Source: Actinomycetes bacterium (lineage in GTDB: Bacteria; Actinomycetota; JAHEXW01). Taken from it: a stretch of DNA of 64,000 nt. Where the stretch lies: the NCBI GenBank assembly GCA_023251915.1, contig JAHEXW010000004.1, positions 26,733-90,732 on the forward strand. Reading direction: 5' to 3'. The notes below the pieces were generated by a model. That model had not been told where the DNA came from. It did not search any database and was given only the letters and a program-made list of their open reading frames with translations. Positions 4,611-59,340 of this stretch are shown in pieces (within the stretch, counting starts at the first letter, position 1; each line of letters starts with the position of its first letter). The translations under genes and the position numbers were made by a program.

Positions 4611-4620
4611 GCGGGGTTCG

Positions 4621-4649
4621 TTGACACGCATTCTGGCTCGTGTTATAAA
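4621..4649 (+). promoter_or_regulatory. sigma70-like promoter (TTGACA, 17 bp spacer, TATAAA) for the riboswitch operon
   Basis: TTGACA at 4621-4626 and TATAAA at 4644-4649 with exactly 17 bp between them. Confidence 0.6.
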
Positions 4650-4659
4650 AAGACAAATC

Positions 4660-4780
4660 GAATAGCGGTGTTCGGCGTCGTAGGGAAGCCTGTGGAAATC
4701 GGGCACGGTCGCGCCACTGTAACCGGGAGATCTGCGTTTACGCGGGTCTCAACGGGAGTCAGGAACCTAACCGAAACACC
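4660..4780 (+). promoter_or_regulatory. cobalamin (AdoCbl) riboswitch aptamer
   Basis: Conserved cores read directly: GGTG..CGG; AGGGAAGCC; GTGGAAATC; CGCGCCACTGTAACCGGGAG (B12 box GCCACTG at 4713-4719); GTCAGGAACCTAACC. The order and spacing match the RF00174 consensus as I remember it. It sits in the 5' leader of CDS 4899. Confidence 0.8.
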
Positions 4781-4827
4781 GGTGAACAGCTACTCTTCGC
4801 GAGATGAGAGGCGGCTTATTTTTATGT

Positions 4828-4858
4828 CCCTTCGAACGAAGCGTTCGAGGGGTTTTTT
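4828..4858 (+). terminator. intrinsic terminator / riboswitch expression platform
   Basis: CCCTTCGAAC-gaagc-GTTCGAGGGG followed by TTTTTT. It lies between the aptamer and the start codon. Confidence 0.7.
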
Positions 4859-4898
4859 ATTAACTGAAAATAGATTATTTGCGTCTAAAGGAGAAAAG

Positions 4899-5966: not shown

Positions 5967-6745
5967 GAATCGCAGCCCGGCTTGGCGCGTTCGCTGTAGC
6001 TGGATTACTGATCATCACATTTGGTGGTGTTGCCAAGGCGACGAGCTATGCCGGCTTGGTCATCAGGCACGGGGACGGTTCCGTCGTGACGCGATGTGTT
6101 TCGTTTGACGAGGCATCAATCTCAGGTATTGACCTTCTTTATCGGTCTGGCCTATCGATTGATGCGCCAACGTCCGGGTACGGCGCCTCGGTTTATGGGA
6201 TTGACGGTGAAGGCACCGCCGAGGATTGGAGCAGCGGTCGCGCGTCTTGGTCATATTGGCACCTGCGGGGCGCTTGGGTTTTCTCGCCCGTCGGGGCCAG
6301 CAGTTACAGCGTTAAACAGGGCGACGTTGAGGGATGGTCATGGGGACCACAGACCGGTCCGACGGCGCCCCCGGCATATTCTTTCGATGAGCTGTATCGC
6401 GACACGTTCGGCGACCCCGCCCCGGCGTCTCCTTCCGCGGGTGCGTCTCAACCTGCGACTGACGCGGCAACTTCTCCAACTTCCCCCGGTATTGCGAGCC
6501 CTGGCGCCACAGCGGGATCAAACGTCTCTGGCGCAAACAGCGTGGGCACGACCGCAAATCCGAGCCTGACTTCCGGCAATAAGACGGCCACCGCGACTGC
6601 CGCTGCCGTCCGGCGTCCGGTTGGCAAAAAGGGGCAACAGGATAACAATTTTTGGAACTACGCTTCGTTTGGAGTATTGTTAGCCGGTTTGAGCGCGGCG
6701 TTTGTCTACTATCAGCTCAAGAACAGGAAACCGACCAAGCCTTAG
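5963..6745 (+). CDS. secreted DUF4430-like (transcobalamin/intrinsic-factor beta-domain-like) protein with Pro/Ser/Thr linker and C-terminal TM anchor
   Basis: ATGA overlap with the upstream gene. Signal peptide MRIAARLGAFAVAGLLIITFGGVAKA. The core YGASVYGIDGEG...WSYWHLRGAWVFSPVGASSYSVKQGD resembles DUF4430 as I recall it. A low-complexity PASPSAGAS...TATATAAA linker follows, then a C-terminal hydrophobic helix and KNRKPTKP. Confidence 0.55.
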   Translation: MRIAARLGAFAVAGLLIITFGGVAKATSYAGLVIRHGDGSVVTRCVSFDEASISGIDLLYRSGLSIDAPTSGYGASVYGIDGEGTAEDWSSGRASWSYWHLRGAWVFSPVGASSYSVKQGDVEGWSWGPQTGPTAPPAYSFDELYRDTFGDPAPASPSAGASQPATDAATSPTSPGIASPGATAGSNVSGANSVGTTANPSLTSGNKTATATAAAVRRPVGKKGQQDNNFWNYASFGVLLAGLSAAFVYYQLKNRKPTKP

Positions 6746-7506
6746 TTGACCCTCACCTTAATAAAGTATTCTTTGCCATGCGGCCAGCGGTTCTGGAGGA
6801 ACCGGTACTTGGTTTCCCAGCGCGCAATCTTTGCCATCAATGATTTTGGCATAAAGGGCGTCCAGGTGCCGTAGGCGTAAGATCCCGCTATCTTGCCGAT
6901 CCGCCGGGCCTCTTTCTTGTACCACCAGTGGGTCCGATATTGATACTCCAGGGGCGGACGACCCTTGATCAGAGCGCGCAGCCAGCGTCCAAATGTAATC
7001 ATTACGCCGGTCGGGCTCCAGAGATCCTTAACGTGAAAGACTACAACGCCCCCTGGCTTCACGACACGCCCCAGCTCGGTCAGCATAAGGTCACTTTCTT
7101 CGGGATTCAGGTATTGTTGCACCGCGATGCTGATGGCCCGGTCGAAGCTGTTATCCTCATACGGCAGACCGGTAACATCACCGACTTCAATGGTGGTCTC
7201 AGCCGTAATGTTGGGTTCCTTTGCGATTCTCGCTTGGCAACGAGCCACCATAGCCGGCGAAAAATCTATAGCGGTAATGCGCGCTACCAATGAACCAAGC
7301 AAGATGATCTGGTCTCCGGCACCGCATCCAGCGTCCAGTATCCGGTCCTCAGGTTGCGGGTCGATCAACTTAATCAGCTCGCGGTCATGAAACGACTGGA
7401 CAGCCGGCGTCATTATCCTGTCGCCCCGAACGGCCTGATGGGGGTCGGCGACAGCCGCTTGGTCTTCCCAAAATGATTTCCACTTTAAATGCTCCTGTTC
7501 TGTCAT
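6742..7506 (-). CDS. class I SAM-dependent methyltransferase
   Basis: Motif I ILDAGCGAGDQI; about 250 aa with the Rossmann methyltransferase layout. Confidence 0.75.
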   Translation of the reverse strand: MTEQEHLKWKSFWEDQAAVADPHQAVRGDRIMTPAVQSFHDRELIKLIDPQPEDRILDAGCGAGDQIILLGSLVARITAIDFSPAMVARCQARIAKEPNITAETTIEVGDVTGLPYEDNSFDRAISIAVQQYLNPEESDLMLTELGRVVKPGGVVVFHVKDLWSPTGVMITFGRWLRALIKGRPPLEYQYRTHWWYKKEARRIGKIAGSYAYGTWTPFMPKSLMAKIARWETKYRFLQNRWPHGKEYFIKVRVN

Positions 7507-7563
7507 GGCTCAATTATACCCGTTCCAATATCACAGAAAGTGTCGAAAACTATCAAATATATC

Positions 7564-7592
7564 TTGACATATTGGAAAGAGTTAGATAAATT
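7564..7592 (+). promoter_or_regulatory. candidate promoter for flp (TTGACA, 17 bp spacer, TAAATT)
   Basis: TTGACA at 7564-7569; TAAATT at 7587-7592. Confidence 0.4.
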
Positions 7593-7666
7593 GGGAACTC
7601 CAAAGGATATGAATCAGGCAGGGGGCGTCCCCGTTTGCCGCACGGGGACGCCCGAGAGGAGAGGGT

Positions 7667-7840
7667 ATGAACAGGGTAAAGATGTTATTGGCAAGGGAAG
7701 ACGGACAGAGCACGACGGAGTATGCACTGGTTTTGCTAGCGGTTGTCGCCATCGCGGGTGTGCTTAGCAAGGTGGGAGTCGCGGGCATGACTGATTTCCT
7801 GACTGGCGTTTTCGCCAAATTAGTCGCGGGGATCAAGTAG
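7667..7840 (+). CDS. flp: Flp/Fap-family prepilin (57 aa, not in ORF track)
   Basis: MNRVKMLLAREDGQSTTEYALVLLAVVAIAGVL: the G/QSTTEY processing motif followed by a hydrophobic helix. GGAGAGGG RBS 6 nt upstream. Confidence 0.75.
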   Translation: MNRVKMLLAREDGQSTTEYALVLLAVVAIAGVLSKVGVAGMTDFLTGVFAKLVAGIK

Positions 7841-7842
7841 CG

Positions 7843-8235
7843 ATGTCCGGATCGGGTGAACAAGGCAGTATCTCGGTGGAGTTCGCGCTAGTCCTGCCCC
7901 TTGTTCTAATGGCGCTTCTCGCGGTCATTCAGACCGGAGTCGTGATGCGTGCTCACCTGATGGTGGCGCAAGCGGCGCGCGAGGGGGCCCGGCAAGCGAC
8001 AACCGCTACTAACGATGCGGAGATCGTTAAAGCCGCCACGCAGGCGGCCGCCGGCGCAAACAGCGACGTTTTATCGGTTACCTGGAATATGCCGGAGGGC
8101 GGACAGGCAGGTTCCCCAATAACCGTCTCGGCGCAAACGTCAGTTCCGTGTCTCTTCCCGTTGCTGGCCAGTGTCTGGCCGCACGCGTTTCAGGCAAAAG
8201 CGACAACCACGATGCGTCTGGAGAGAGACCGATGA
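7843..8235 (+). CDS. tadE: TadE-like pseudopilin
   Basis: N-terminal GSISVEFALVLPLVLMALLAV, the TadE motif. Confidence 0.7.
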   Translation: MSGSGEQGSISVEFALVLPLVLMALLAVIQTGVVMRAHLMVAQAAREGARQATTATNDAEIVKAATQAAAGANSDVLSVTWNMPEGGQAGSPITVSAQTSVPCLFPLLASVWPHAFQAKATTTMRLERDR

Positions 8236-8585
8236 CCGCATTACTAGCCGGATGCCTCGCCTTGGCGTTGGTATTTGTTCCGGTCACGGTGGATATCGGA
8301 ATCATTAATCGATCTCGCGCTCAAGCCGAAGCTACCGCGGACGCCGCCTCACTGGCGGCCGCCCAAGAAATGGTGAGTGGCGGTGATCTGGCCGCAGCCG
8401 CCGCTGAATACGTGGCGAAGAACGGCGGCGCCCTCAAGTCTGTCGTGGTCGAAGGCCGAAGCGTCGTCGTAACCGTGGAGGAGCCTTGCCAGACGATTTT
8501 GGCTGACCGCTTGGGTATAGAAGTTGGTCAGGCGCGGGGTAGAGGCAAAGCGGAACTGAAGGAATTCGATGAGCCGGATTATTAG
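8232..8585 (+). CDS. Tad/TadG-like Flp pilus-assembly protein (N-terminal TM)
   Basis: ATGA overlap with tadE. MTALLAGCLALALVFVPVTVDIG...AEATADAASLAAAQEM is typical of the TadE/G-like family. Start moved from the ORF-track 8148 to the ATG at 8232. Confidence 0.55.
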   Translation: MTALLAGCLALALVFVPVTVDIGIINRSRAQAEATADAASLAAAQEMVSGGDLAAAAAEYVAKNGGALKSVVVEGRSVVVTVEEPCQTILADRLGIEVGQARGRGKAELKEFDEPDY

Positions 8586-9738
8586 GGCTCGCCTTGCCGG
8601 GTCGTTGCTTCTCTTGGTTTTCGGGATGGGATGGGTCGTCATCGGCAAGAACGTTTTAGCTGGCGAAGTTACATTTGTTCGTCCGCTTAACGGGACGACC
8701 GTGTTGCGCTTTGGGCAAACATATACCGATACAACCTCGGGAAAGAAGCGGACTCATCGAGGAGTTGATATATCGGCGGGAGCACAAACGCGGATTACGG
8801 CGGCCGCGGCCGGCCGTGTCTCGTTCGCCGGTCATACACCGCTAGGGAATTGCGTCAGCGTGAAACATGTCAACGGGGTAAAGACAACGTATTTGCCGCT
8901 AGACAAGGTCGCTGTTAGTGCCGGTGATCAAGTTGGGCAAGGCCAGACGATCGGTTATGTCGCAGCCGCGGGCGACCCATCCTGTGCTTCGAGCCATGTC
9001 CACATCGGTGCCATCTTCGCCGCGAAATACATCGACCCGGAAACGCTATGGCGCGGGGAATTCCGAACGGATTTCAGTCGTTTAATAAGGCGCGCCGATA
9101 TTCCGCCCGCCGGCGTTGCCATCGCCTCGACCGGTAACAGTATCTCGACAGCCGGTCCACTGGCGACCGTTGCGCATAACGGCGTCTTCTCGTTTTTTAC
9201 GTGGCTGGCCGGTCTCTGGCGGGGGGCGCAAGGCTTTGTGGCACGCGGCTGGTCTGCCGGTACGGCGTTTCTGCGACGTTTGCTTGATATCGGCGCCAGC
9301 ACTTTTCACTGGTCTAAATCGCTTTGGAAATCAACGCTTTCATTATTTGGACGGCGCGCCTGCGTAGTCGGAAAGAGCAAAGCATTTTGGCCAGCGGTTC
9401 GCGATATTTCGCGATCGGGTATCGGTTATGGGTTAGGCCCGGCCGCACCAGCCGGTTGCCTTTGCCGGCTGGATCCCAGCGGTGACGCTACGTTTCCCGG
9501 AGACAGGGTGACGATTCTCTTAGACTTTGGGACCCGTGCCAGGGGGCTGGACGTCTTCAACAACGACGGCGTCAGGATACGGGTTGTCGAGCGCTGGGAA
9601 GGTAGCGCGCGCGAAATCTCGTGGACAGGCGAAGATGATTCCGGCCGGATCGTACCGAACGGTCTTTATACGATTATCGTGCGCCAAACCAACGGACCCG
9701 GCGCGGGCTGCTTAGTTGAGGTCAAATGGCACTCTTAG
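8569..9738 (+). CDS. M23 (LytM) family metallopeptidase with C-terminal FlgD-Ig-like domain
   Basis: HRGVDI ... GNCVSVKH ... SHVHIG matches the LytM H-x-x-x-D / H-x-H layout. The C-terminal TILLDFGTRARGLDVFNNDGVRIRVV...LYTIIV is FlgD-Ig-like. Confidence 0.75.
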   Translation: MSRIIRARLAGSLLLLVFGMGWVVIGKNVLAGEVTFVRPLNGTTVLRFGQTYTDTTSGKKRTHRGVDISAGAQTRITAAAAGRVSFAGHTPLGNCVSVKHVNGVKTTYLPLDKVAVSAGDQVGQGQTIGYVAAAGDPSCASSHVHIGAIFAAKYIDPETLWRGEFRTDFSRLIRRADIPPAGVAIASTGNSISTAGPLATVAHNGVFSFFTWLAGLWRGAQGFVARGWSAGTAFLRRLLDIGASTFHWSKSLWKSTLSLFGRRACVVGKSKAFWPAVRDISRSGIGYGLGPAAPAGCLCRLDPSGDATFPGDRVTILLDFGTRARGLDVFNNDGVRIRVVERWEGSAREISWTGEDDSGRIVPNGLYTIIVRQTNGPGAGCLVEVKWHS

Positions 9739-11024
9739 CAAGGAAGAGTATAGGGAGAATAGGGATTATTAGGAGTATAAGGAAACATGTCATTGCGAGG
9801 GAGCGTCGCGATCGCGGCAAGCTCATCGGGGTAAAGTGCCTCCCGGTATTCATAATCTCTATACTCCTAATACTCCCGCACCAGGCCCTTGCGTGGGGTT
9901 CCGTGACTCATGCCGCAATCTGCCGGGAGGCCGGCGGCAGCGAAGACTTTGTGTTGGGCGGTATCGCACCGGACATGATTGCACTACATTCTGTGACCAC
10001 GGGTGACTCCTCTTTTGACTACACGCATAACTATTTCGGTGAAGCGCGCGAGCCTGTGTTTGGCAAAATAATGGCGCAAGTGTCAGGTCAAGACTTTTCG
10101 CACGGTTGGGTCGCGCACCAGTTAGCCGATAGTGTGGTTCATGGACCGGACGGTTACTCGAATACAAAAACAGTCTTCGAGAACATCCCGGAAAAGTACA
10201 AACCGACACTTAGTCATGGCGCGGTTGAGCTGATTGTCGACGCGATCGTCCTAGACGAGCTCTATCATCGCAGCGTTGACCTGTGGGTGCCGGATAACGC
10301 AGAGCTTATCCATAGGTCCACCGTCCGTTTCTATAACAGCTACTTGTCCACGGACCTAAAGGTTCCGCGTGCCCACATTATTAACTGCCACACGGCTGCT
10401 GATTTGGCGTATCGCTGGGACTTGTGCTTGAACACCAACAAATACCTGGCTGAACTCATGCTGGAAGAGCCTTGGTTCGCGACCGTGCGTCGGCGCTTCG
10501 AGGACTTCAGACCTCTGTTCGCGCGCTCAGTGGCTCTTGTCGGCAGCCGTGCGTCGGTGACACGTCCTCCCCGCAAAGCCCCGGCCTCCGGCTGGGACAG
10601 GTGGGCCGAACTCTTACCGACCGCAGTCGCCCGTGCCGCGGAGGGCGAAGAGGGCGGAGAGGTTGGTGGAACCGGAGAGCCGGCCGGTTACTATCGATTC
10701 CTAGCGCAACTCGGTGAACGAGCGAAAAGAAACGGACACGGCCATATGACCAAGGAAAGCGTCCGGCAAGCTGCCGTCGAACTTGCCAACAGCAAAGAGA
10801 CGTCAGAGGAGGAAAAGGTTTGGTCGGCGGCAATGGCCGGTCTGACCGATAAACGCACGACTGATCTGCGCCAGGTCAGCCGCCTAATCAGGGAGGCGGG
10901 GAGGCGCTCGTCCGGGAACGGCGCCGCAGGCGGCCTAAAGGATGACGTTCTCCCCTATCTTCCTTGCGGCGCGGCTCTCGGTGTTGTGTTGGCCGCGCTT
11001 GTCTGGATGTTCAAGAAACGATGA
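9726..11024 (+). CDS. secreted zinc-dependent phospholipase C / P1-nuclease superfamily protein with sorting-signal-like C-terminus
   Basis: Signal peptide ending ALA; the predicted mature N-terminus WGSVTHAAI carries the N-terminal Trp that serves as a zinc ligand in this superfamily. His/Asp-rich helices follow. The C-terminal LPYLPCG is followed by 16 hydrophobic residues and KKR. The only in-frame start is 9726, so the N-terminal region is encoded through the palindromic repeat. Confidence 0.6.
   Translation: MALLARKSIGRIGIIRSIRKHVIARERRDRGKLIGVKCLPVFIISILLILPHQALAWGSVTHAAICREAGGSEDFVLGGIAPDMIALHSVTTGDSSFDYTHNYFGEAREPVFGKIMAQVSGQDFSHGWVAHQLADSVVHGPDGYSNTKTVFENIPEKYKPTLSHGAVELIVDAIVLDELYHRSVDLWVPDNAELIHRSTVRFYNSYLSTDLKVPRAHIINCHTAADLAYRWDLCLNTNKYLAELMLEEPWFATVRRRFEDFRPLFARSVALVGSRASVTRPPRKAPASGWDRWAELLPTAVARAAEGEEGGEVGGTGEPAGYYRFLAQLGERAKRNGHGHMTKESVRQAAVELANSKETSEEEKVWSAAMAGLTDKRTTDLRQVSRLIREAGRRSSGNGAAGGLKDDVLPYLPCGAALGVVLAALVWMFKKR
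9773..9871 (+). repeat. palindromic element (arms ATTATTAGGAGTATA / TATACTCCTAATACT) enclosing a GTCATTGCGAGG plus GC-hairpin unit
   Basis: Perfect 11-13 bp inverted arms at 9773-9787 and 9857-9871. The core GTCATTGCGAGG is at 9788-9799, followed by GAGCgtcgcgatcgcggcaaGCTC. Confidence 0.6.
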
Positions 11025-11038
11025 AAGGGGGTGATTAT

Positions 11039-11242
11039 ATGGATAACGCGTCCGAGTTGGGTCGGGTAAAACGAGATGACCAGGTTGACGTCGTCATTCG
11101 TAAGGGTGAGTTCATGGGCAAGGCTTACGTTGATATTCGCGAGTACCTAAAGGCTGACTCCTTCGAGGGGTTTACAAAACGGGGCATACGGATTCCGGCA
11201 GATTTGTACGCCGAGCTCGTTGCTCAAATGAACAAGTCATAA
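11039..11242 (+). CDS. PC4/Sub1-like ssDNA-binding small protein (YdbC-like)
   Basis: 67 aa, start at the ATG after AAAGGGGGTGA. KAYVDIREYLKADSFEGFTKRGIRIPADLYAELV resembles the PC4 motif ...DIREY...PTKKGISL.... Confidence 0.5.
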   Translation: MDNASELGRVKRDDQVDVVIRKGEFMGKAYVDIREYLKADSFEGFTKRGIRIPADLYAELVAQMNKS

Positions 11243-11346
11243 ACGCTATGATACAATTATGGCTGGACGCAGGGCTTTTGCCAGAGGACAATATTTGCGC
11301 TTCCTCTGGCAAAACTATTTTCACCGCGCCAGCGAAAGGGGTAAGC

Positions 11347-12630
11347 ATGGCAGACGAGTTCAAGGCTCCCATCGAGCCGGAGCAACAAACGGAGCAGGCA
11401 CCAACCGGCCTGCCGGAACAGCCCGTTCAAGATGAGTTCTCAATAGCCGATTCGCCGCCGACCGCGGCTGACACGGCTGGTAATGAAGAAATCCCTCTGG
11501 TCGACAAGGCGGCGTCCAAAGAAAAGCCGCCTAAGCAACCGAAACCGCCGAAACAACCAAAGCCACCGAAAGAGCCAAAACCACCCCGGCCGCCTAAAAC
11601 GCCGAAAACGGCCAAGGAAAAGGCAAAACAAAAAGCTCTCATGAAGAAGATAAGCATGATTGCCGCCATTGTCTTATTGTTGGCCGCGGCCGGCTTTGGC
11701 GCCTGGTATTATCTCATTCGCAGCGTTCCGGTCAACGTGACCGCTACGTTGGTTCTGCGGGGAACAGTGCGTGACGTTGTGAACGCGACTGGCAAGGTCG
11801 AAGCCAACCAGATGGTCCCCATATACGCGGTCCAAGACGATAGAGTCAGTGAAGTATTAGTAAAAGAAGGCGACTCGGTTATCTCCGGCCAGAACTTGGT
11901 AAAGCTGGATGGCGGGGGATTTGTCACGACGTCGATCGCCGGCAAGGTAACGAATATCGCTGTCCAGGCCGGTGACAAAGTGGTCGGCACTATTCAACCG
12001 CTGACGGCGGTCCCGACAACGCCTTCGACCACGACGCCGTCGACTACCAACCCGACCGCGACGACTCCCGCTACCACGGCGCCAACAACAACGACGCCAC
12101 AAATAACCAAGACGCCCACGTTGTTGATGACGGTCGCTAACATGGATCCGACTTACGTGGTTGCCAACGTTGACGAAACGGACATTTCTAAGATCAAAAT
12201 CGGGCAAAAGACCGAAATGACTCTGGATGCCTATCCGAACAAAATAATCCGAGGTGACGTAACCGAGATCGGCCTGGTGGCTACGGCGACCCAGACGGGA
12301 GGCACCGCTTTTCCAGTCAAGATCCGGGTTACCGAGGCTAAGGACATCGACCTGCGCATCGGCATGAGCGCCGACACTGATATTGTCATCAGAACGCGCG
12401 ACGACGCTCTCCGGGTTCCGGTTACAGCCGTCACCACGGACGGAGGCAAAGATGCCGTATATGTCGTCAAGAATAATTCCGCGGAGAAAACGACCATCAA
12501 GATCGGCTTGTTGAGCGGCGACTATTATGAGGTCTTGGCCGGCATCAACGAGGGTGAAGAGGTCGTCGTCAAAGGTATCGACAAGCTAAAGGGCGTGAGC
12601 AAGGCCGACGTGAAGGTCACGCGGCGGTAA
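11347..12630 (+). CDS. HlyD/MacA-family periplasmic adaptor with Pro/Lys-rich N-terminal region
   Basis: AAAGGGG RBS. N-terminal PKQPKPPK repeats, one TM helix, then a biotin-lipoyl/beta-barrel adaptor layout. It precedes MacB-like ATPase and permease genes. Confidence 0.65.
11527..11598 (+). repeat. tandem 18-bp (6-codon PPKQPK) repeats, about 4 copies
   Basis: ccgcctaagcaaccgaaa / ccgccgaaacaaccaaag / ccaccgaaagagccaaaa / ccaccccggccgcctaaa. Confidence 0.5.
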
Positions 12631-20558: not shown

Positions 20559-21119
20559 ATGAACCATAGATGCTGCCGAAAGAAGATAAATCTGTTATTA
20601 CTAGCACTGGCTTGCGGCCTTGTCTTGGCTGGTTGCAAACCTGCGGCTAAGCCGGCAACCCCGACGGCCAAGCCTGTCGCACAAGCAAAACCGGTTACTG
20701 TAAATCCGATCAACAACGTGTCGACAAAACCTGGGCTGGTTATCTCAGATATTGAGGTCGAGGGAAACACAGATCCGGCGACGGGCAAGAACCTTAAGGA
20801 TCACCTGCAGTTGACGATTAATAATGGCACCATAGAGACGATGACCGGATTCGAGGTCTTCTATACGATGACTGACAAGAAAACCAAGAAAAGCGAGAGC
20901 TATTATCAGAAACTGACCGGGTTTCAGCTGGGTCCGGGGAGGGCGGCGACGCTCCATTTTGACGGCGGTAAAGGGCCGGGCCACTATCCCGAGAACAACA
21001 AATCCATATATCGCAAGTCAAGAAACGCCGTAGATTTCATGGTTGAAGTCAGCTGCGTGGGATTCCAGCCGGCGCCGGGTAAGGCGACTAAAACGGCGAG
21101 TTCTATGGACGGACTGTAG
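20559..21119 (+). CDS. hypothetical lipoprotein
   Basis: Signal peptide plus lipobox LVLAGC. Confidence 0.55.
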   Translation: MNHRCCRKKINLLLLALACGLVLAGCKPAAKPATPTAKPVAQAKPVTVNPINNVSTKPGLVISDIEVEGNTDPATGKNLKDHLQLTINNGTIETMTGFEVFYTMTDKKTKKSESYYQKLTGFQLGPGRAATLHFDGGKGPGHYPENNKSIYRKSRNAVDFMVEVSCVGFQPAPGKATKTASSMDGL

Positions 21120-21183
21120 AAAGTAAGGAGGAATAGCCATCAAAAAGTTTGAAAAAGAGGCCAGCCCCTTCGCCAAAGCCGGG

Positions 21184-22650
21184 TTGATTGTTGGGATATC
21201 CCTTTTTCTGGGTTGCCTCTTCGACTTTTTGATCTACGGCAAATTCCCCGGCTTGGCATTCCCGGTTTATGTCGCTCTAATCATCATGGGTCTTCTTGGT
21301 ATCACTTGGCTCTATGGAAGAACGACGACGAGCAGCGTTCTGTGGCTCCTGGTGCCCGTCTTCTTCTTTGCGGCGATGGTCTCGGTCCGCGCCAGCTTTC
21401 TGCTAACCGCCCTGAATCTGATAGCCGTTTTTCTGCTGCTGCTGCTGATCGCTCAAGTGGCCTTTAGCGAACCCCTGCAGACTTACCGCATCAAGGACTA
21501 TTTCAGGCTCGCGCTAGTGCCTTTCATGTATATCGTTTCATTATTCAAAACACTTGGAGACTTGGTCACGCTCCGCGGCGTCAAGGCAGACAAACGGACC
21601 ATGGCCCAGGTCGCGACGGGCATTGTCATAACGATTCCTCTCCTTGTTGTCTTTTCTCTGCTGTTCGCCTCGGCTGATTTAGTGTTCCAGAGGGCGCTGT
21701 CACAAATCGTGAGTTTCAGTATCGGGCCGGAGTTTGTTTTTCGAACGATCCTGATCTTCTTCGCTATGCTCGGTTTTACCGGAGCCTATTCATTTGTCTT
21801 TCGTAAGTCGGAGCCTGGTGTCGGCTTCCCGGGAGCGGTTCCGATCGCTAAAAAGACAGGCGGCTTCGGGCGTATCGAGGGCTCCATCCTCCTTGGATCA
21901 GTCAACGCGTTGTTTGGCGCTTTCATCTTGGTTCAGATCACATACCTGTTCGGGGGTCTTGGCAACATTTCCGGGCAAGGATTTACCTACGCCCAGTATG
22001 CGAGGAGAGGGTTTTTCGAGCTGGTCGCGGTCGCCGTGATAACGCTGGCGATGCTCCTGCTGATCGAGCGTTTCACGCCCAAGAACATGACTGGCCATTC
22101 CGGGTTGTTCAGAAGCTTGAGCACATTGCTCGTTGTCCAGGTCATGGTAATCATGGCCTCGTCGCTAACACGCATGTCGTTCTACGAGAACGCGTACGGT
22201 TTCACCGAACTGCGTCTCTACGTGCACGTGTTTATCTTCTTCATTGCGGCGGTTTATGTCGCTCTGCTGTACAAGATTCATATCGACAACCGTGAAGATA
22301 CGTTCACATTCAAAGTCTTTTTGTTGGTAGTTGCGTTCTTAGCCTTCATGAACGCGGTCAATCCGGACGCTTATATTGCCCGTCAAAACATGCAGAGATT
22401 TCGGCAAACCGGCAAGATCGACGCGGGTTATTTAGGCGGTTTATCTGACGACGCGTTGCCGGTGACGATATCCTTGCTGAAGAGCAAAGACGCGTCTGTC
22501 AGAGAAGAATATGCCAGTAGATTGCGCGACAGAGTTCGCGTGGAGCGAGGGCCGTTATTCTCTCGATGGCAATCGCTCAACTTATCACGCGTGAGAGCAA
22601 AAGAACTGATGCAGGAGAGCGATCAGGAAATGAAGAATTTGCTGCGCTGA
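21184..22650 (+). CDS. hypothetical polytopic membrane protein
   Basis: 488 aa, about 10 TM, no recognised family. The start is uncertain: a strong AAGGAGG at 21125-21131 is in frame but has no canonical start codon before the TTG at 21184. Confidence 0.5.
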   Translation: MIVGISLFLGCLFDFLIYGKFPGLAFPVYVALIIMGLLGITWLYGRTTTSSVLWLLVPVFFFAAMVSVRASFLLTALNLIAVFLLLLLIAQVAFSEPLQTYRIKDYFRLALVPFMYIVSLFKTLGDLVTLRGVKADKRTMAQVATGIVITIPLLVVFSLLFASADLVFQRALSQIVSFSIGPEFVFRTILIFFAMLGFTGAYSFVFRKSEPGVGFPGAVPIAKKTGGFGRIEGSILLGSVNALFGAFILVQITYLFGGLGNISGQGFTYAQYARRGFFELVAVAVITLAMLLLIERFTPKNMTGHSGLFRSLSTLLVVQVMVIMASSLTRMSFYENAYGFTELRLYVHVFIFFIAAVYVALLYKIHIDNREDTFTFKVFLLVVAFLAFMNAVNPDAYIARQNMQRFRQTGKIDAGYLGGLSDDALPVTISLLKSKDASVREEYASRLRDRVRVERGPLFSRWQSLNLSRVRAKELMQESDQEMKNLLR

Positions 22651-22694
22651 GGGTTTGTCACTCGATAGCAGTTCTGGGGACAGGCTAGCCCAAA

Positions 22695-23822
22695 CTAGTC
22701 TAACTTCTTGGTCTTGATTATTCTGTTTTGTTCGATCCAGACGATCCTGTTGTTGGCGGCGCAGTAGTCAAACGGATTGTCTCCCATTCCGGAATTGGCC
22801 TGTAATATTGCGATTCTGTTCGCCGTGCCCTGGCCGATAATGGGTAGTCTGTAGACTATCGCCTGAGGTTCTCGCTCGTCGAAGTAGAATATCAAGTTCT
22901 TTTTAGCATGGTCGAGATACAGTTTTCTGATGGAAACGGTATGCGACATATCGTGTAGGAATTCATCGATCCACAACGACGGTCGCTCAACGCTCCAAAG
23001 GCCCCTCTTTGTTTTTGTAGATATGTCGATGACGCTGATATTCAAAGAGGATAAACCTTGTTTCTCGTTAACGTAATAGACGTTATTACCATTCAAGACT
23101 GCAGTGATGAAATAGCCCCCGGAAGACTCAACGAGACTCGATGAGGTGTTTGTCTTTGTGTCCAATACAAGAAGGCTGTCTCCGACAGTCGTGTCCATGT
23201 TGCTCACCTTATAAACAAAATACCGTCCATCGTCGGACCACACCAGTCCGCCAATCCCCGCGCCCCTGATCAACTCGGTGTTCGCGGAGGAATCAACCTT
23301 GACTGTTTTAACAACTACGTAGTTGTTGTTATGTGCCTCGTACCACGCAATGTTATCGCTTTTCCATCCGCCCGGTGCTGCATCCGGTATCGTTGAAACG
23401 ATCTTCCCTGTCTTGACCTCAACAATGACTAGATCAAGTTTTGATGGGGCAGCAAATCCCGACTGCTGTTGTTCCACAACACGGGTAAACATCAGGTAAT
23501 TTCCTTTAGGAGAAACCGCAACTAGGTTTATGCCCCATGTTTTGATTCCGCGCGCTAAGAATTTCTTGCCACTAAGATTTGGTTTTTCGGAGTAGATGCG
23601 CGAATTCCAGGATTTTGGCCCATTGCCATAGATTTCAGCAGTATAAATCCGCTTGCCATCCGTCGCCCACGCGACGTTCCTGTATCCAGCAAATTTGGCG
23701 CTATCAGGGGGCTTCTTCTGTATGGTAGGTTTCTCGCCCCTAGCAGTGCATCCCGCAATTAAAATAATTGCCAGTAGTATGGCTAGAAAGGGGAAGGTCC
23801 TTCTGATATTCGACGATCTCAC
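22695..23822 (-). CDS. lipoprotein with beta-propeller (TolB/PD40-like) repeats; islet cargo
   Basis: Lipobox LIAGC. Repeated ...DG...Y.....G...I... blades. Local GC is clearly lower than the flanks. Confidence 0.5.
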   Translation of the reverse strand: MRSSNIRRTFPFLAILLAIILIAGCTARGEKPTIQKKPPDSAKFAGYRNVAWATDGKRIYTAEIYGNGPKSWNSRIYSEKPNLSGKKFLARGIKTWGINLVAVSPKGNYLMFTRVVEQQQSGFAAPSKLDLVIVEVKTGKIVSTIPDAAPGGWKSDNIAWYEAHNNNYVVVKTVKVDSSANTELIRGAGIGGLVWSDDGRYFVYKVSNMDTTVGDSLLVLDTKTNTSSSLVESSGGYFITAVLNGNNVYYVNEKQGLSSLNISVIDISTKTKRGLWSVERPSLWIDEFLHDMSHTVSIRKLYLDHAKKNLIFYFDEREPQAIVYRLPIIGQGTANRIAILQANSGMGDNPFDYCAANNRIVWIEQNRIIKTKKLD

Positions 23823-23855
23823 AGAGCAACTCCTCGCGCCGTTCGCGTTTGTAGA

Positions 23856-24509
23856 TCAACGCATATCTTTGGCGATTTTCAATAAGTCTTTCTCGTTCAG
23901 TTCGCCGGAGTCCGCAAAGAGCCTATATTCTATGCCCTTAACGACGAATGCGACTCTTGGTGAAACCCGATGCTTTTCATCTTCGAACTTCTGCGTTCCG
24001 CTTTTCATCACCATGTATTTCCGCACGCCGTCGTCCGCTACATCGTAGACTTGTCTTCTGCCGTCCGTGAACGACTCAGGTGATACTTCTGTAGGAAGAA
24101 TACTCTCGAATGTCTTGTTCTTGTCTCCGGAGGGGGTCGCGAAGAACTTCACTCCCGAGTCGAAAAGGATCCCAATGCCTACCCATTCTTTGGGTGCTTC
24201 CGCCTCTGTAAGACGAACGCGGACGATAGTGCCGAGCGCCTTGCTCGACGGGATGAGAATACCGTCCGCCGCCTTCTCTCGCGCGGTTACGAGCGGGATG
24301 CCAGGATTACTATCGTCATCGAGGATGTCGCCTACCAGAGGCAGCTCCCTACTTTCGACTGAATTGTTCTTCGAAGAGGCGTGAGCTGAATGTCTGGTTA
24401 GTAAAACGGGAGCCTTAGCGGAAGGCTTGATCGTGGCGAATGCTGCGGCAGACATCACGGCGATTGCGAGCAGCGCTAAGCCTCCGATTAACCAATTTGT
24501 TCTAGTCAT
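23856..24509 (-). CDS. hypothetical membrane-anchored exported protein; islet cargo
   Basis: N-terminal TM/signal, no family recognised, low GC. Confidence 0.45.
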   Translation of the reverse strand: MTRTNWLIGGLALLAIAVMSAAAFATIKPSAKAPVLLTRHSAHASSKNNSVESRELPLVGDILDDDSNPGIPLVTAREKAADGILIPSSKALGTIVRVRLTEAEAPKEWVGIGILFDSGVKFFATPSGDKNKTFESILPTEVSPESFTDGRRQVYDVADDGVRKYMVMKSGTQKFEDEKHRVSPRVAFVVKGIEYRLFADSGELNEKDLLKIAKDMR

Positions 24510-24534
24510 GAAAACACATCCTTTCTCTCCCTGG

Positions 24535-25371
24535 CTAGTGGATTTCGTAATTGTTGCAGTAGAGCCATTGCGCGTCGAACAGATGGTTTAGGAAGAATCC
24601 ATAAGGGGGATTTTGGTATTTGTCGTTGTTCTGCCACGGGCGCGGTGCATGTTTAGCTCCTGGCCAATAATAATATGTATCTGCGGCGTAGTATGAGCGG
24701 TACTGGGAGCGGTAGAATGTGCCATACCACGTGCCGGCGGGCGGATTGGGAGGAGGAGGAACGGCGGGTACCTCTGTGTCATCACGCTCGCATGCAAGGA
24801 TACTTCGCGAACTTACAATCCCGGTCCCTAAAAACGAGTAGACGGGTGTCCATATGTTGGTGTTAGGATCCCAGACGCTAACGTCGTATCGATCAGAAAG
24901 CGAGCCGCCTGGCCGGAATCTCGCGAGCAAGAACCCGTACCATCGTCCATTCACAAAGCCGATGTCTCGCACAACGATGTATCCCGGATGGTTCAAGCCA
25001 TCCATGAAGCCCTCATTATAGGTACCGTTTTTATATGAGACCACAAAGCCAATCGGATTCCTGAGCGGTATGCCGTTTATCCTTTTATTATACTCCCGCC
25101 CGACCTCAACGCAATCGCCATTGTCGCGCGCGGCTAGCGTCGAATTCACAAACTTGCTCGCATAGTTGGGAACTGGATTCCAGAAGTAGAGCTCGGTGAA
25201 CTGCCCATCGTTGAGCAGCCACACTCCATTAGGGTCTGAATCCCCGTAACCAGTATTAGCCATCAGAGTGCTTCCGTAATCTGAGGCGTACGCCTGGCCA
25301 GTAGAAAAAAGGAACATTGCTGTTACGAGTGACCAGCAAATAACGGTGCTTCTCCACCGTATGACCATCAT
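24535..25371 (-). CDS. hypothetical secreted protein (Tyr/Trp/Pro-rich C-terminus); islet cargo
   Basis: Signal peptide with AYA cleavage site. GGGAGGG RBS. AT-rich upstream region 25440-25560. Confidence 0.5.
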   Translation of the reverse strand: MMVIRWRSTVICWSLVTAMFLFSTGQAYASDYGSTLMANTGYGDSDPNGVWLLNDGQFTELYFWNPVPNYASKFVNSTLAARDNGDCVEVGREYNKRINGIPLRNPIGFVVSYKNGTYNEGFMDGLNHPGYIVVRDIGFVNGRWYGFLLARFRPGGSLSDRYDVSVWDPNTNIWTPVYSFLGTGIVSSRSILACERDDTEVPAVPPPPNPPAGTWYGTFYRSQYRSYYAADTYYYWPGAKHAPRPWQNNDKYQNPPYGFFLNHLFDAQWLYCNNYEIH

Positions 25372-25653
25372 CTTCCCTCCCTAGATTCCGCTTTGTCCAG
25401 ATGTCTTAACTCAAGACACACTGCTTGAGAACAGATAGGCGTTATATGCGATAGCGAGTGATGATATTAAAGTAATATTCATGCAAGGATAAGTCAAGGC
25501 ATAATAGTAAATATTATAAAGTCTCTTTATTAGCAGCATCATTGTTAATTATCTAAGTTATGTACATTTTTGAGACTTACCCCTTAACTGGACCTCACTC
25601 TCCAGTGAGAGGGAAATAAGGACAGCGGGGAATAATCGAAACTGACGGTCCCT

Positions 25654-26095
25654 GGTGGGCCCGTTCTCGGGCTTAGTCATCTGCATGTAGCGATCTACCA
25701 CGCACGAGATTAGCTGGCAAAGTGGGCCTCGTGTCAGTTCCTGCGATTTGGCTTGGCGGGCCGAATGCCAGGATGACCGTTCGCATGTTTCTGCCGCCCC
25801 AGGATGAACCGTTTACTGAAAGGTTTCCGCGACGGCTGGCCTGCCGGCCGTAGCGACCGAGAAGACGGAGGCCGTCAGGCTGGAGTTTGTCCGCGAAGGC
25901 TGGTGGGCCCGTTCTCGGACTTCGCCTCGCCTGTCAAAATGGGAGGTTGCTTCGTCACTTCATTCCTCGCAATGACCGAATGACGCGACCCTCGGTTGCT
26001 CACGACTCGAATATCGCTCCTTCGGACCGAGTTCGAGTCAAGCAAGGCAACATTTCTAGGAAATATCGGAAGATATTCCTCAGGGATGGTGGGCC
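25654..26095 (-). repeat. array of three degenerate copies of the tRNA-Ile 3' end (TGGTGGGCCC...), putative att-site remnants
   Basis: Plus-strand TGGTGGGCCCG at 25654 and 25901, and TGGTGGGCC at 26087. The first two share 22 nt. The copy at 26087 and the true tRNA end at 26286 are each followed by a hairpin (GGAAATATCggaaGATATTCC and AGAAATACC...GGTATTTCT). Confidence 0.5.
25941..25976 (-). repeat. GTCATTGCGAGG-family repeat copy (minus orientation)
   Basis: Plus strand gggaggttgcttcgtcacttcattcctcgcaatgac equals the rc of GTCATTGCGAGGaatgaaGTGACGAAGCAACCTCCC. Confidence 0.5.
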
Positions 26096-26143
26096 TCGGG
26101 ACTTTCAGGCACGATTCTTCCTGGATTTGAAAGCATCGTGAGG

Positions 26144-26185
26144 GCTTGCCGCGTCGGTCGCCTTGGGCGACCTCCTCGCAATGAC
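26144..26185 (-). repeat. GTCATTGCGAGG-family repeat copy with GGTCGCC-caa-GGCGACC hairpin (minus orientation)
   Basis: rc reads GTCATTGCGAGGaGGTCGCCcaaGGCGACCgaCGCGGCAAGC. It shares CGCGGCAAGC with the copy at 9788. Confidence 0.5.
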
Positions 26186-26285
26186 GCACTATTGCGCCCC
26201 CTGGCGCAAACCGTTCAAACAGACTCTCGAAACGCAAAATCCCTTAGAAATACCCACTGTGAAAGGTTGTGGTATTTCTAAGGGA

Positions 26286-26362
26286 TGGTGGGCCCGGACC
26301 GACTCGAACGGTCGACCTCACCCTTATCAGGGGTGCGCTCTAGCCAACTGAGCTACGGGCCC
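26286..26362 (-). tRNA. tRNA-Ile (anticodon GAT), CCA encoded
   Basis: rc is GGGCCCGTAGCTCAGTTGGCTAGAGCGCACCCCTGATAAGGGTGAGGTCGACCGTTCGAGTCGGTCCGGGCCCACCA. It forms a cloverleaf, with anticodon loop CT-GAT-AA and T-loop GTTCGAGTC. Confidence 0.9.
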
Positions 26363-26407
26363 AACGACAAAGTGAAATTATAGCACAGGAGTCCGGAAAC
26401 AGGCAGC

Positions 26408-27103
26408 CTATGACCGCATACGCAGCCGGCAGACCGTTCCCAGGGCTTTATAGATTTCGGTCCCAGATACCTTCGTTTCGCCCAGGCGGCGGTCGGCGTA
26501 ATGAATCGGCGTCTCGTCAATTTTCAGACCGGCTTGTTTGGCGCGATAGAGGATCTCCATCAGGAATGAGTAGCCGTCGGCCGTAAATGGCTGGCGGATT
26601 ATTTCTTCCAAAGCTTTCCGCCGGTAGCAGCGAAAACCCGAGGTGTTATCTCGTGTTCTTAGCCCGAGCAAGGTTGTTGCGACCATGTTGCCGCCGCTGC
26701 TCAATACCCGCCGCCACAAGCTGAAATCGACGCTGCCGTCGCCTACATACCGGGAACCGATCACGACATCGTTTCCGGCCTCCGCCATCTTCAATAACGC
26801 CGGAATGTGCGCCGGGTCATGCGACAGATCGGCGTCCATGGTTACAATCAGGTCAGCCTGGGGCAGCGCGGCGGCAAAGCCGGCCAGGTGTGCCGTGCCC
26901 AGGCCTTCCTTTCCGGCGCGATGCACAACGGTCATGTCACCGTCGGCGGCCGCCAGCCTGTCCGCGATGGCGCCCGTCCCGTCCGGCGAGTTGTCATCCA
27001 CGACGACAATCCGCATCGGCTGCTCAAGCCGCCGGATACCCTCTACCAGCAACGGGAGGTTCTCGAGTTCATTGTAGGTTGGAATGACAACAGCCGTCCT
27101 CAT
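26408..27103 (-). CDS. GT2 polyprenol-phosphate mannose synthase-like glycosyltransferase (DPM1/Ppm1 family)
   Basis: VVIPTYNELENL...VVVDDNSPDGT...DADLSHDP: GT2 DxD plus the DPM synthase pattern. Confidence 0.75.
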   Translation of the reverse strand: MRTAVVIPTYNELENLPLLVEGIRRLEQPMRIVVVDDNSPDGTGAIADRLAAADGDMTVVHRAGKEGLGTAHLAGFAAALPQADLIVTMDADLSHDPAHIPALLKMAEAGNDVVIGSRYVGDGSVDFSLWRRVLSSGGNMVATTLLGLRTRDNTSGFRCYRRKALEEIIRQPFTADGYSFLMEILYRAKQAGLKIDETPIHYADRRLGETKVSGTEIYKALGTVCRLRMRS

Positions 27104-28431
27104 GCCGTGACCTCTTTTGTCTGTCCGGCTCCGCGCGAGAAATTACCGAAATAGGCGAGAAACAGCAGCGTCGTCGCATAGTAGAAATAGTTGTTGTGCG
27201 TGAACCGAGAGACTATTACAAAAACAAATATCGTGAGGGCCGCGGCCGTCAGCATGACGGACATTGTATTGTCTTTGAACTGCCGCCAAGCCATCGCGAT
27301 TGACAGCGGCAGCAGAATCACCAGATATAGCAGGGACGACGGGAAGTAGGATTGGTCCGTTTTAACCAGGCCGGAAGCCAGCGCGGCGTGGCTGATGCCC
27401 CAACCGGCGATATGCCAGCTGGCTACGGCGGAACCGTAAGGATAGCGGACGATATCGTCGAAGAAGGCGTTAAGATTCCACAGCATCATCGGCAACCCGA
27501 AGACGGCGACGATGCCTCCAAGAACTAAGCATGTCTTCGCCAACGGGGTCCAAGAGCCATCGTTTTCGCGCCACATCCTGCGGCCTTGGCCATAGAGATA
27601 CAGCAGATAGAATGGCAAAAATATGATGACGAATTGCTTCGTTAGGAGGCCTATGCCGAGGAAGATGGCGGCTGGAATGTAGCGGCGTAGGGAGGTCAGA
27701 TAGACCGCCGCGACCAGGCACGCGGTAGCGACAATGTCGTTTGTGCCATAGACAAAATAGTATATTATCTCCGGATTTAGCGCGAAGACGATCACCAAGG
27801 CGCGCCTTAGCGTCGGGGCAGCGGGCAGTTTCCACAACACCAATATGGTAAACAAATAGAACAACAGGTACAGCATTCTCAAATCGAACCAACCCAACGA
27901 TGCCTTTACAAGCAAGAAGAAGGGTATAGGCAAAAGAAACGTCAGGGGCAGGTAGACGTAATGCTTTAGAGCGGGTGACTTATGATCGAACTTAAACAGC
28001 GGTGTCTTGTAGTAGTTTTCCACGTAAGGATTTTTGCCTCGTAGAATCATATTCATGGCCGCTTCTGTCTGAACGGCCGAATCAGTTATGCATGCAGCCG
28101 GCCCGATGGAATGGCGGAGCATGATCACGGTCACCATCGGCGTTACCGCGGCGACGATAATCAGCCCGGCCAGAATGCCCGTTTTCGCTCGATGTCCCCG
28201 TTTAGGGTCGCGGACAAAGAAATCAACAGCCACGTAGCCGGCGATACCCGCCAAAACGAGAAACGAACCGATATGCAGCCAGCGGTACGCGAGCGCATTT
28301 ACTGTTTGAATATACCGGCTGTACAGCAAGGAAATGGTAAGGATAAGGACAAGCAGGACGGTGTCCAAGCCTATCGGCAATTGAGATTCGCCAGTGGCAC
28401 CCATTGTTTGGTTTTCCGATTGTTCTGTCAT
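27100..28431 (-). CDS. GT-C fold integral-membrane glycosyltransferase (DUF2029-like mannosyltransferase, tentative)
   Basis: About 11 TM. ATGA overlap with the PPM synthase gene. Start trimmed to the ATG 5 nt after GAGGA (MTEQSEN...). Confidence 0.55.
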   Translation of the reverse strand: MTEQSENQTMGATGESQLPIGLDTVLLVLILTISLLYSRYIQTVNALAYRWLHIGSFLVLAGIAGYVAVDFFVRDPKRGHRAKTGILAGLIIVAAVTPMVTVIMLRHSIGPAACITDSAVQTEAAMNMILRGKNPYVENYYKTPLFKFDHKSPALKHYVYLPLTFLLPIPFFLLVKASLGWFDLRMLYLLFYLFTILVLWKLPAAPTLRRALVIVFALNPEIIYYFVYGTNDIVATACLVAAVYLTSLRRYIPAAIFLGIGLLTKQFVIIFLPFYLLYLYGQGRRMWRENDGSWTPLAKTCLVLGGIVAVFGLPMMLWNLNAFFDDIVRYPYGSAVASWHIAGWGISHAALASGLVKTDQSYFPSSLLYLVILLPLSIAMAWRQFKDNTMSVMLTAAALTIFVFVIVSRFTHNNYFYYATTLLFLAYFGNFSRGAGQTKEVTA

Positions 28432-28554
28432 TTGATCCTCACGGCGCGGCCCCCAACGCCAGACCCATTCTAGCATTGCCTGTTTGGTCGTTGCGACCTC
28501 GCGGCGCGGTCGGCTAGACTTAAGGACGATAACGCTAAACTTCAAGGAGGCATA

Positions 28555-29163
28555 ATGAGCCCAAGATTTCGTATGGCCGCGGTCGTCGCCACCGCGGTGT
28601 CCATTCTGGCCGTGTTCGCGGTAGCGTGCGGCGGCGCAAAATCCTTCGAGACGGATAAGGCGAATACCAAAATCACGGCGGCTAACGCGGATATCGATAA
28701 ATATAACGCCGTCCAAAAGACGATTGATTCAGACCAGGCGAAAATTAACGCCATGCCGGGAACACCCGAGGGTTTTGGCCAAATGACGCCATTTCTGACA
28801 GACATCGACACCAAGTTAAAGGAACAGAAGACCGACCTCGGAAAGGCAATCAAGGAATTTGAGGCCGGCAAGGCGCTGTACATACCGGGTGACTTCAAAA
28901 CGTATTTCCAGATGCTCATCGATGTCGCTAAAAAGCAGGAGGAGTCAATCGATCTGACGGCCCTGGCAAACCGGGAATACATAACAACATCGCAGACCAT
29001 GGTTGCCGGAACCGCCACTGAAGAAAGCTTAAGCGCAATCAAGGTCAAGGTAGACGATTTGGAGACTCGCGCCAAGAAAGCCGCCGACGATGCGCTGGCG
29101 CTAAAGGCAAAAGCGGATAAGTTCTACAAAGACCGCGCGTTGGCAAGCGGCGGCAACAAATAG
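28555..29163 (+). CDS. hypothetical lipoprotein (helical, Lys/Ala/Asp-rich)
   Basis: Lipobox AVACGG. AGGAGG RBS. Confidence 0.55.
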   Translation: MSPRFRMAAVVATAVSILAVFAVACGGAKSFETDKANTKITAANADIDKYNAVQKTIDSDQAKINAMPGTPEGFGQMTPFLTDIDTKLKEQKTDLGKAIKEFEAGKALYIPGDFKTYFQMLIDVAKKQEESIDLTALANREYITTSQTMVAGTATEESLSAIKVKVDDLETRAKKAADDALALKAKADKFYKDRALASGGNK

Positions 29164-59304: not shown

Positions 59305-59340
59305 GTCATTGCTAGGAGCGCAGTGACGAAGCAACCTCCC
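59305..59340 (+). repeat. GTCATTGCGAGG-family repeat copy (variant GTCATTGCTAGG) between larC and larB
   Basis: GTCATTGCTAGGAgcgcaGTGACGAAGCAACCTCCC. Confidence 0.5.

Follow-up and report, generated by a model that had tools for sequence, protein, structure and literature searches.

A rare three-gene putative envelope cassette beside a tRNA-Ile gene whose trailer appears partly duplicated, in an uncultivated actinomycete

Do a tRNA gene, repeated copies of its 3' end and a neighbouring block of low-GC genes mark the remains of an integrative element? The question is raised by a locus in a 64,000-nucleotide (nt) stretch of a genome assigned to an Actinomycetes bacterium (lineage JAHEXW01; contig JAHEXW010000004.1 of assembly GCA_023251915.1, forward-strand positions 26,733 to 90,732), which we refer to in its whole length as the window. 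Three minus-strand genes, p278, p217 and p375, lie there beside a tRNA-Ile(GAT) gene. A first-pass annotation made from the sequence alone read them as the cargo of a decayed tRNA-targeted island; the tRNA gene and the three co-directional open reading frames (ORFs; 22695-25371) are as it described them (Table 1). We favour another reading, which we place just on the probable side: the accessory operon is a rare, horizontally exchanged cassette in a tRNA-adjacent hotspot, with a partly duplicated tRNA trailer between the two. The 0.63-kb spacer between tRNA and operon is not an island border.

The 3'-terminal 9 nt of the tRNA, GGCCCACCA, occurred on the minus strand at 26286 (in the tRNA itself), 26087, 25901 and 25653, and nowhere else in the 64 kb. 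Four occurrences within 710 nt compare with about 0.5 copies expected per window on both strands in first-order Markov simulations, and the other three tRNAs of the window had no extra 3'-end copies in it. The repetition of the tRNA end, which the first-pass annotation had noticed, is therefore real. All three copies (c1 to c3) were found inside the non-coding spacer, where they close gene-free intervals of 199, 186 and 248 nt (units u1, u2 and u3). No copy was detected beyond the operon between 17144 and 25653, searching with an 11-mer at up to 2 mismatches and a 22-mer at up to 6 mismatches. Identity with the tRNA was limited to 9-11 nt: the match reached 11 nt, CGGGCCCACCA, in the copies at 25901 and 25653, and the 66 nt before each core could not be aligned to the tRNA (z -1.4 to 1.5). 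The core is preceded in all three copies by a non-tRNA arm, AAG(T/C)CC(C)GAG (AAGYCCGAG), and c2 differs from c3 at one of 22 positions. Decayed tRNA genes were considered as a source of the spacer units and rejected: relaxed ARAGORN settings gave only implausible intron-containing calls, Rfam recognised only the real tRNA, and no upstream alignment was obtained.

The hairpin that follows the tRNA (Table 1) also follows tRNA-Ile in two related contigs, L004 and L005, which have no such spacer and in which no extra tRNA-end copies were found. Since this hairpin is orthologous, the tRNA-proximal flank is native DNA and not the arm of an integrated element, and no element junction is visible there. 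Units u1 and u2 start with related hairpins (TCCCTnAGnAATA...), carry a repetitive extragenic palindromic (REP)-like element at offsets 100 and 110, respectively, and end with AAGTCC...GCCCACCA. Their global alignment scored z 6.0 over shuffles, and 4.2 when the last 22 nt were removed. Judged by these sequence features, u1 and u2 appear to have arisen by tandem duplication of the trailer that belongs to the tRNA itself, composed of terminator hairpin and REP-like element, and to have diverged since. Their divergence is high, and Tandem Repeats Finder reported no tandem array in the spacer. The spacer fold was more stable than that of shuffled sequence (z -3.1), as expected for a run of hairpins.

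In the most likely history of these repeats, one founding downstream copy of the tRNA end, either an old attachment-site scar or a partial duplication, would later have been amplified by unequal crossing-over or slippage against the tRNA 3' end. The classic footprint of a tRNA-targeted element, claimed for this locus by the first-pass annotation, was not borne out, as the copies lie only in the spacer and leave the genes unbracketed, the hairpin is native, and u1 and u2 appear to be tandem duplicates. The operon does not end at the tRNA either, as had been stated; it is its 5' end that faces the tRNA, across 914 nt. The reported lack of an integrase was confirmed: no integrase domain was present in the genes of roughly 14-35 kb, and six-frame ORFs of 25380-26290 gave no Pfam match indicative of a decayed integrase in the spacer.

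Composition was assessed against the 64-kb window only (63 long ORFs; GC mean 0.557, standard deviation 0.025; GC at third codon positions, GC3, mean 0.656, standard deviation 0.037), and GC3 was ranked over the 62 ORFs taken as genes, a probably spurious ORF at 25875-26237 being excluded. The GC3 values of p375, p217 and p278 (0.559, 0.583 and 0.591; z -1.7 to -2.6) ranked 1, 2 and 4 from the bottom, and the chance of finding three adjacent genes among the bottom four is about 0.006 by a rough rank-based estimate. Tetranucleotide deviation, normalised for base composition, was highest of 123 sliding 3-kb windows at 23501-26500 (z 3.75) and second highest at 22501-25500 (z 3.36). The description of all three genes as AT-richer than everything else was accurate for p375 (GC 0.472) but not for p217 (0.521) and p278 (0.515), whose GC of about 0.52 equals that of the two left neighbours (20559-22650; 0.517). 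The composition of the operon is thus atypical, but modestly.

Relatives for a synteny comparison, contigs L003 to L007, were chosen by protein search with the product of the neighbouring DUF4153 gene (67-73% identity). Homologues of p278, p217 and p375 were absent from the homologous interval in all five, in the stretches recovered. A scan of a species-level genome collection returned one distant, non-syntenic locus at 31% identity, and two scans of JGI metagenome contigs for a syntenic locus returned nothing. The conserved flanks consist of HlyIII and ABC transporter genes on one side, and of GT2 and GT87 glycosyltransferase genes, a lipoprotein gene and YgjP on the other. The ABC transporter flank was retained in L004, L005 and L007, and the GT87-GT2 pair also in L004, whose GT2 protein is 64% identical to that of the window.

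The tRNA-Ile of L004 has the same orientation as that of the window, and all content between the GT2 and ABC genes differs. Upstream of the tRNA, L004 carries seven unrelated genes and then DUF4153; downstream, it carries a single DUF2341/LamG gene with the lowest GC3 of the contig (0.50). In the window, nothing separates GT2 from the tRNA, and the spacer, the operon, an inverted DUF4153 gene, a lipoprotein gene, uppP and an acyltransferase gene follow downstream. The arrangement of L005 resembles that of L004, L007 has DUF4153 directly beside the ABC genes, and L003 and L006 differ again. None of the relatives examined thus matched another in the content of the GT2-to-ABC interval, a rearrangement hotspot in which different, compositionally odd genes occupy the 3' side of the tRNA in different genomes. 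No tRNA fragment was found beyond the DUF2341/LamG gene of L004 or L005.

The cassette was also found outside this locus, in four other contigs (L009, L010, L011 and L013). L010 (GCA_902810715.1) carries p278-p217, a native-looking DUF4352 gene and p278-p217-p375-p217, between EamA/GT2 genes and a PMT_2 gene. In L011, p278-p217 (68% identity) is flanked by a TspO gene on one side and the C-terminus of an IS3-family transposase on the other; in L013 the p278-p217 pair follows a P-type ATPase gene, and L009 carries p217-p375; the genes flanking the L011 cassette and the P-type ATPase of L013 were identified by reading translations, not by family search. The order of the cassette genes is conserved and their location is not, the locus being a different one in each genome. 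No intact tRNA was present beside the cassette at the other loci. The distribution is very sparse, with 3 to 5 clusters in 5.8 billion proteins; homologues in that set numbered two for p375 (plus one in L010) and four for p278, and the small family that includes p217 comprised 31 representatives at E<=1e-3.

The GC3 of the L010 cassette (0.61-0.75) contrasted with that of all nine neighbouring genes (0.35-0.43), so the cassette is foreign there and crosses lineage boundaries. Its two copies (4151-6155 and 7472-11545) have sharp shared ends, and their leader of about 350 nt is 94-97% identical compared with 78-87% for the coding parts, a pattern suggestive of gene conversion or of a regulatory RNA under conservation; Rfam had no match for this leader. 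At the right end of the block, where GC drops, we found a tRNA T-arm/acceptor fragment, GGTTCGAATCCTTACTCCTGCCA (11622-11644, plus strand), and a pseudo-tRNA (11700-11784, minus strand) that was detected only with relaxed ARAGORN settings.

The three genes are best read as one operon for exported envelope proteins. Intergenic gaps are 25 nt (p278/p217) and 33 nt (p217/p375), and a Shine-Dalgarno-like sequence precedes each gene. The region before p278 is AT-rich, as described earlier (GC 0.377 at 25300-25599), and may well hold the operon promoter that had been placed there, but a consensus promoter scan of it gave no match. The p278 protein has a cleavable signal peptide (AYA|S) and contains 8.6% Tyr, 4.0% Trp and 8.3% Asn, and p217 has one N-terminal hydrophobic helix, in line with the secreted Tyr/Trp-rich and membrane-anchored proteins of the first-pass annotation. 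The third protein, p375, had been called a beta-propeller lipoprotein. The lipobox is there (LIAGC), and for the propeller there is a single PD40 match that falls short of the threshold (E 0.0012; 19.1 bits, cutoff 20.9), a lead that p375 may adopt this fold. Beyond that match, Pfam, NCBIfam and PHROGs contained nothing for p375; p217 and p278 had no match in the three collections, and profile searches of PDB sequences with p375 and p278 found no relative. The AlphaFold model of p278 was poor (predicted local distance difference test score, pLDDT, 45.8) and was not used for a fold search. In structure, p217 has a candidate extracytoplasmic Mog1/PsbP-like ectodomain resembling the PknH sensor domain, DcrB, LpqN and RseB/MucB; unlike established members, it has no sequence-level family match, and the Foldseek TM-scores were low (0.2-0.3). 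The earlier phrase "three envelope proteins" is supported by export signals and one fold, and the three products presumably act in the envelope. A paralogue of p375 (48% identical; P0122, ENA ERZ27297709), from the same two samples as the window, follows coaX in a housekeeping neighbourhood.

Collectively, an atypical composition, the absence of the genes from the locus of L003 to L007 and their presence elsewhere are the findings expected of a horizontally acquired islet, and the cassette would be exchanged horizontally among a few uncultivated bacteria. Several observations weigh against this. The compositional shift is modest, GC3 being only 0.07-0.10 lower, and p375-family genes have nearly constant GC1, GC2 and GC3 in four genomes, so that part of the GC dip may reflect the amino-acid composition of the family or a shared origin. 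At about 70% protein identity, synteny is commonly lost without transfer, and absence in relatives is weak evidence. The L011 cassette is 68% identical to that of the window, a value similar to those of core genes of the same metagenome (50-68% in L007); L011 and L007 share that metagenome and their GC (0.514 and 0.516), and this degree of divergence fits vertical descent if the two contigs belong to one organism. No homologue was found on plasmid and phage collections (tblastn with the three proteins) or on viral contigs. Horizontal acquisition in this particular genome is something we infer rather than demonstrate.

These observations give substance to an alternative in which the operon is native and vertically inherited, its composition follows from odd amino-acid content and weak expression, ordinary rearrangement and loss explain its distribution, and the tRNA-end repeats are an unrelated local duplication. 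The L011 homologues fall in with this, since their 68% matches the 68% of L007 DUF4153 and the 50-67% of its ABC proteins at the same GC, as do the promoter-like block common to the window and L011, the constancy of GC1 and GC2 in the p375 family, the housekeeping context of the p375 paralogue, and the rearrangement of the whole GT2-to-ABC interval among relatives, housekeeping uppP included. We nevertheless consider it unlikely. GC3, which is largely independent of amino acids, is also lowest in the window and the normalised tetranucleotide signature most deviant; p278 and p217 homologues have a higher GC3 in every other genome (0.63-0.75, against 0.58-0.59 here), so the low value is not a family trait. 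In L010 the cassette is unmistakably foreign and must move between lineages, and so extremely sparse a distribution argues in the same direction.

Somewhat more credible, though still doubtful, is the possibility that an integrative element targeting the tRNA-Ile 3' end brought in the three genes as cargo and later lost its integrase and distal attachment (att) site by deletion, only the cargo surviving, the tRNA-end copies being scars of repeated integrations by related elements. Correctly oriented tRNA 3'-end fragments do lie downstream, with the common AAGYCCGAG arm before an 11-nt core, and tandem ssrA islands of Dehalococcoides show the same pattern (PMC3146451). The atypical operon, the L010 block ending beside a pseudo-tRNA and a T-arm/acceptor fragment, and the different low-GC3 gene on the tRNA-Ile 3' side of L004 and L005 are consistent with it. 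However, the genes lie outside every tRNA/fragment interval with no degenerate copy past them, neither an integrase nor a detectable remnant was found, the identity block spans a mere 9-11 nt, and the other cassette loci have no intact tRNA. With a native post-tRNA hairpin that u1 and u2 duplicate, local duplication is simpler than three integrations decayed to about 190 nt. A cis-mobilizable or decayed island would have attL and attR bracketing its cargo; the att-like copies here are on the tRNA side only. What stands of the proposed decayed island is the atypical composition, the absence of the cassette from the locus in the five nearest available relatives, its foreignness in L010, the varying accessory content on the 3' side of this tRNA among relatives and the lack of an integrase, but not the footprint. 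A long shot, in our view, is that the p278-p217(-p375) cassette is a recombinase-less mobile module moved in trans by tRNA-3'-end integrases, the units of about 200 nt ending AAGYCCGAGAACGGGCCCACCA being miniature att-bearing elements, similar to cis-mobilizable elements (CIMEs), accreted in tandem at tRNA-Ile. If so, the locus would capture hitch-hiking without an integrase in a bacterial lineage of which little is known.

If instead the operon is an exchanged cassette at a hotspot, as we favour, the locus adds another small accessory islet to those at tRNA-linked hotspots. The analysis newly defines a previously unnamed three-protein putative envelope cassette, present in a handful of genomes and transferred between lineages. 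A tRNA, a repeated tRNA end and low GC are insufficient to call an integrative element, because the repeats here are largely duplicated trailer and do not delimit cargo.

Table 1. Features of the tRNA-Ile locus (window coordinates); roles given for proteins and regulatory sites are predictions.
Feature	Position	Strand	Basis and remarks
DUF4153 membrane protein, left flank	21184-22650	+	Pfam E 8e-80; convergent with the operon; synteny anchor
p375 (375 aa)	22695-23822	-	Lipoprotein; possible PD40/TolB-like beta-propeller
p217 (217 aa)	23856-24509	-	N-terminal membrane anchor and candidate extracytoplasmic Mog1/PsbP/DcrB/PknH-sensor-like domain
p278 (278 aa)	24535-25371	-	Secreted; Tyr/Trp/Asn-rich; predicted all-beta
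AT-rich region upstream of the operon	25400-25600	-	TTGACT-containing promoter-like block, also in the L011 homologue (alignment)
Spacer unit u3, 248 nt	25653-25900	-	Unrelated to u1/u2 except for the last 22 nt, AAGCCCGAGAACGGGCCCACCA (copy c3, 25653-25674)
Spacer unit u2, 186 nt	25901-26086	-	Degenerate hairpin copy and REP-like element (25942-25976); ends AAGTCCGAGAACGGGCCCACCA (copy c2, 25901-25922)
Spacer unit u1, 199 nt	26087-26285	-	Terminator hairpin and partial REP-like element (26173-26185); ends AAGTCCCGAGGCCCACCA (copy c1, 26087-26095)
Likely native tRNA terminator	26239-26286	-	Perfect 16-bp hairpin, then TTTTGCGTTT (T-run); inverted repeat, 100% complementary
tRNA-Ile(GAT), CCA encoded	26286-26362	-	ARAGORN; Rfam tRNA 68.5 bits; orthologue of L004/L005 tRNA-Ile
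Putative extended -10 promoter element of the tRNA gene	26377-26387	-	TGTGCTATAAT; read from the sequence; conserved in L004/L005
GT2 glycosyltransferase, right flank	26408-27103	-	Pfam E 1.8e-33; immediately upstream of the tRNA, co-directional with GT87

The motif upstream of the tRNA reads TGTGnTATAAT. Between the tRNA-Ile of the window and that of L004 (11565-11641), the T-stem shows compensatory changes (GACCG/CGGTC versus GGTGG/CCACT) and the acceptor stem has G7-C66 in place of A7-T66; c2 and c3 carry CGGGCCC, the acceptor sequence of the window type. In L004 (11565-12934) and L005 (2389-3800), tRNA-Ile lies 31 nt after DUF4153 on the same strand and is followed by the DUF2341/LamG gene. 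A single inversion relating the window locus to that of L004 was considered and discarded, as none converts one arrangement into the other. A presence/absence polymorphism was likewise dismissed: contigs with the identical GT2 protein showed no more than a break of the Logan assembly of SRR14366756 inside the tRNA. About 35 nt within the tRNA (26300-26334) are common to the ends of contigs L016 and L001, and the assemblies of ENA and NCBI are continuous there. The break is explained by a conserved tRNA that occurs in more than one context in the sample, and is no evidence for an alternative junction. The lineage is uncultivated and poorly sampled, with almost no sequenced relatives.

The REP-like element (CGTCATTGCGAGGA...variable...GACGAAGCAACCTCC) is dispersed and intergenic, on the plus strand at 9789-9801, 59305-59340 and 60129-60171 and on the minus strand at 25942-25976 and 26173-26185. 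It is also found upstream of the p375 paralogue on contig L008 (1-40), which suggests that this contig comes from the same genome as the window. P0122 is followed by three Pfam-less proteins (190, 308 and 306 aa) and then by shikimate dehydrogenase and GreA genes. A match to an 18-nt motif on two viral contigs, with the same sequence and no tRNA there, was set aside as coincidence, about that many being expected by chance (rough estimate for an assumed collection size of about 6e10 bases).

Upstream of the tRNA, GT87 and GT2 lie on the minus strand. The GT87 ORF (538 aa, 27100-28716) is probably too long at its 5' end: gene callers place the start near 28431 (443 aa), which would put it about 120 nt from the lipoprotein gene at 28555, transcribed divergently. 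In two unrelated genomes, those of the window (26408-28431, GT87) and of L010 (1368-2306; 12275-13900, PMT_2), a GT2 and a GT-C glycosyltransferase gene are close to the cassette; these are the two carrier contigs whose length lets neighbouring genes be seen. The proximity may reflect a role connected with glycosylation of the envelope, or coincidence; two cases do not establish a link. On the left flank, DUF4153 homologues after the five at 67-73% identity drop to about 50%, and those with a named source are Patescibacteria (CPR, candidate phyla radiation), which hints at an older inter-phylum transfer of this gene.

How does the locus compare with known systems? Islander defines a tRNA island by a tRNA gene, a cognate fragment on the right side and in the right orientation, island DNA enclosed by the two, an integrase, and a size of 2-200 kb (PMC4383910). 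The window shares with such islands an intact tRNA with displaced, same-orientation 3'-end copies downstream and adjacent DNA that is atypical and absent from relatives. Unlike in these islands, the cargo is not between tRNA and fragment but beyond the last fragment, the tRNA-fragment intervals total 0.63 kb (0.2-0.25 kb each) against the 2-kb minimum, there is no tyrosine integrase, and each fragment shares no more than 9-11 nt with the tRNA.

At the ssrA islands of Dehalococcoides, the ssrA 3' end recurs in arrays as a 20-bp repeat, and before each repeat stands a conserved motif with no alignment to ssrA; some of the islands lack integration modules and may be cis-mobilizable elements, and past the final repeat lies a gene-rich region, perhaps an old, fixed island (PMC3146451). 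Our locus is similar in its direct 3'-end repeats, each with a non-aligning motif before it, and in the accessory genes just past the last repeat. In contrast, the ssrA repeats are kilobases apart with genes between them and many of the islands keep a serine-recombinase module, whereas the units here are about 200 nt long and gene-free, and two of them appear to be plain duplicates of the tRNA trailer. The shared non-tRNA arm resembles the ssrA locus, which leaves an integration scar as a possible origin of the founding copy.

In E. coli, the tRNA-Tyr gene tyrT has a trailer, described in 1978-1981, that is built of 178-bp tandem units in which the final 19 nt of the tRNA recur. The spacer of the window resembles it in having units of about 190 nt that come right after the tRNA and end in a copy of its 3' end, with u1 and u2 homologous over their full length. 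It differs in that its units are highly diverged, u3 shares the last 22 nt only, and a REP-like insertion is present.

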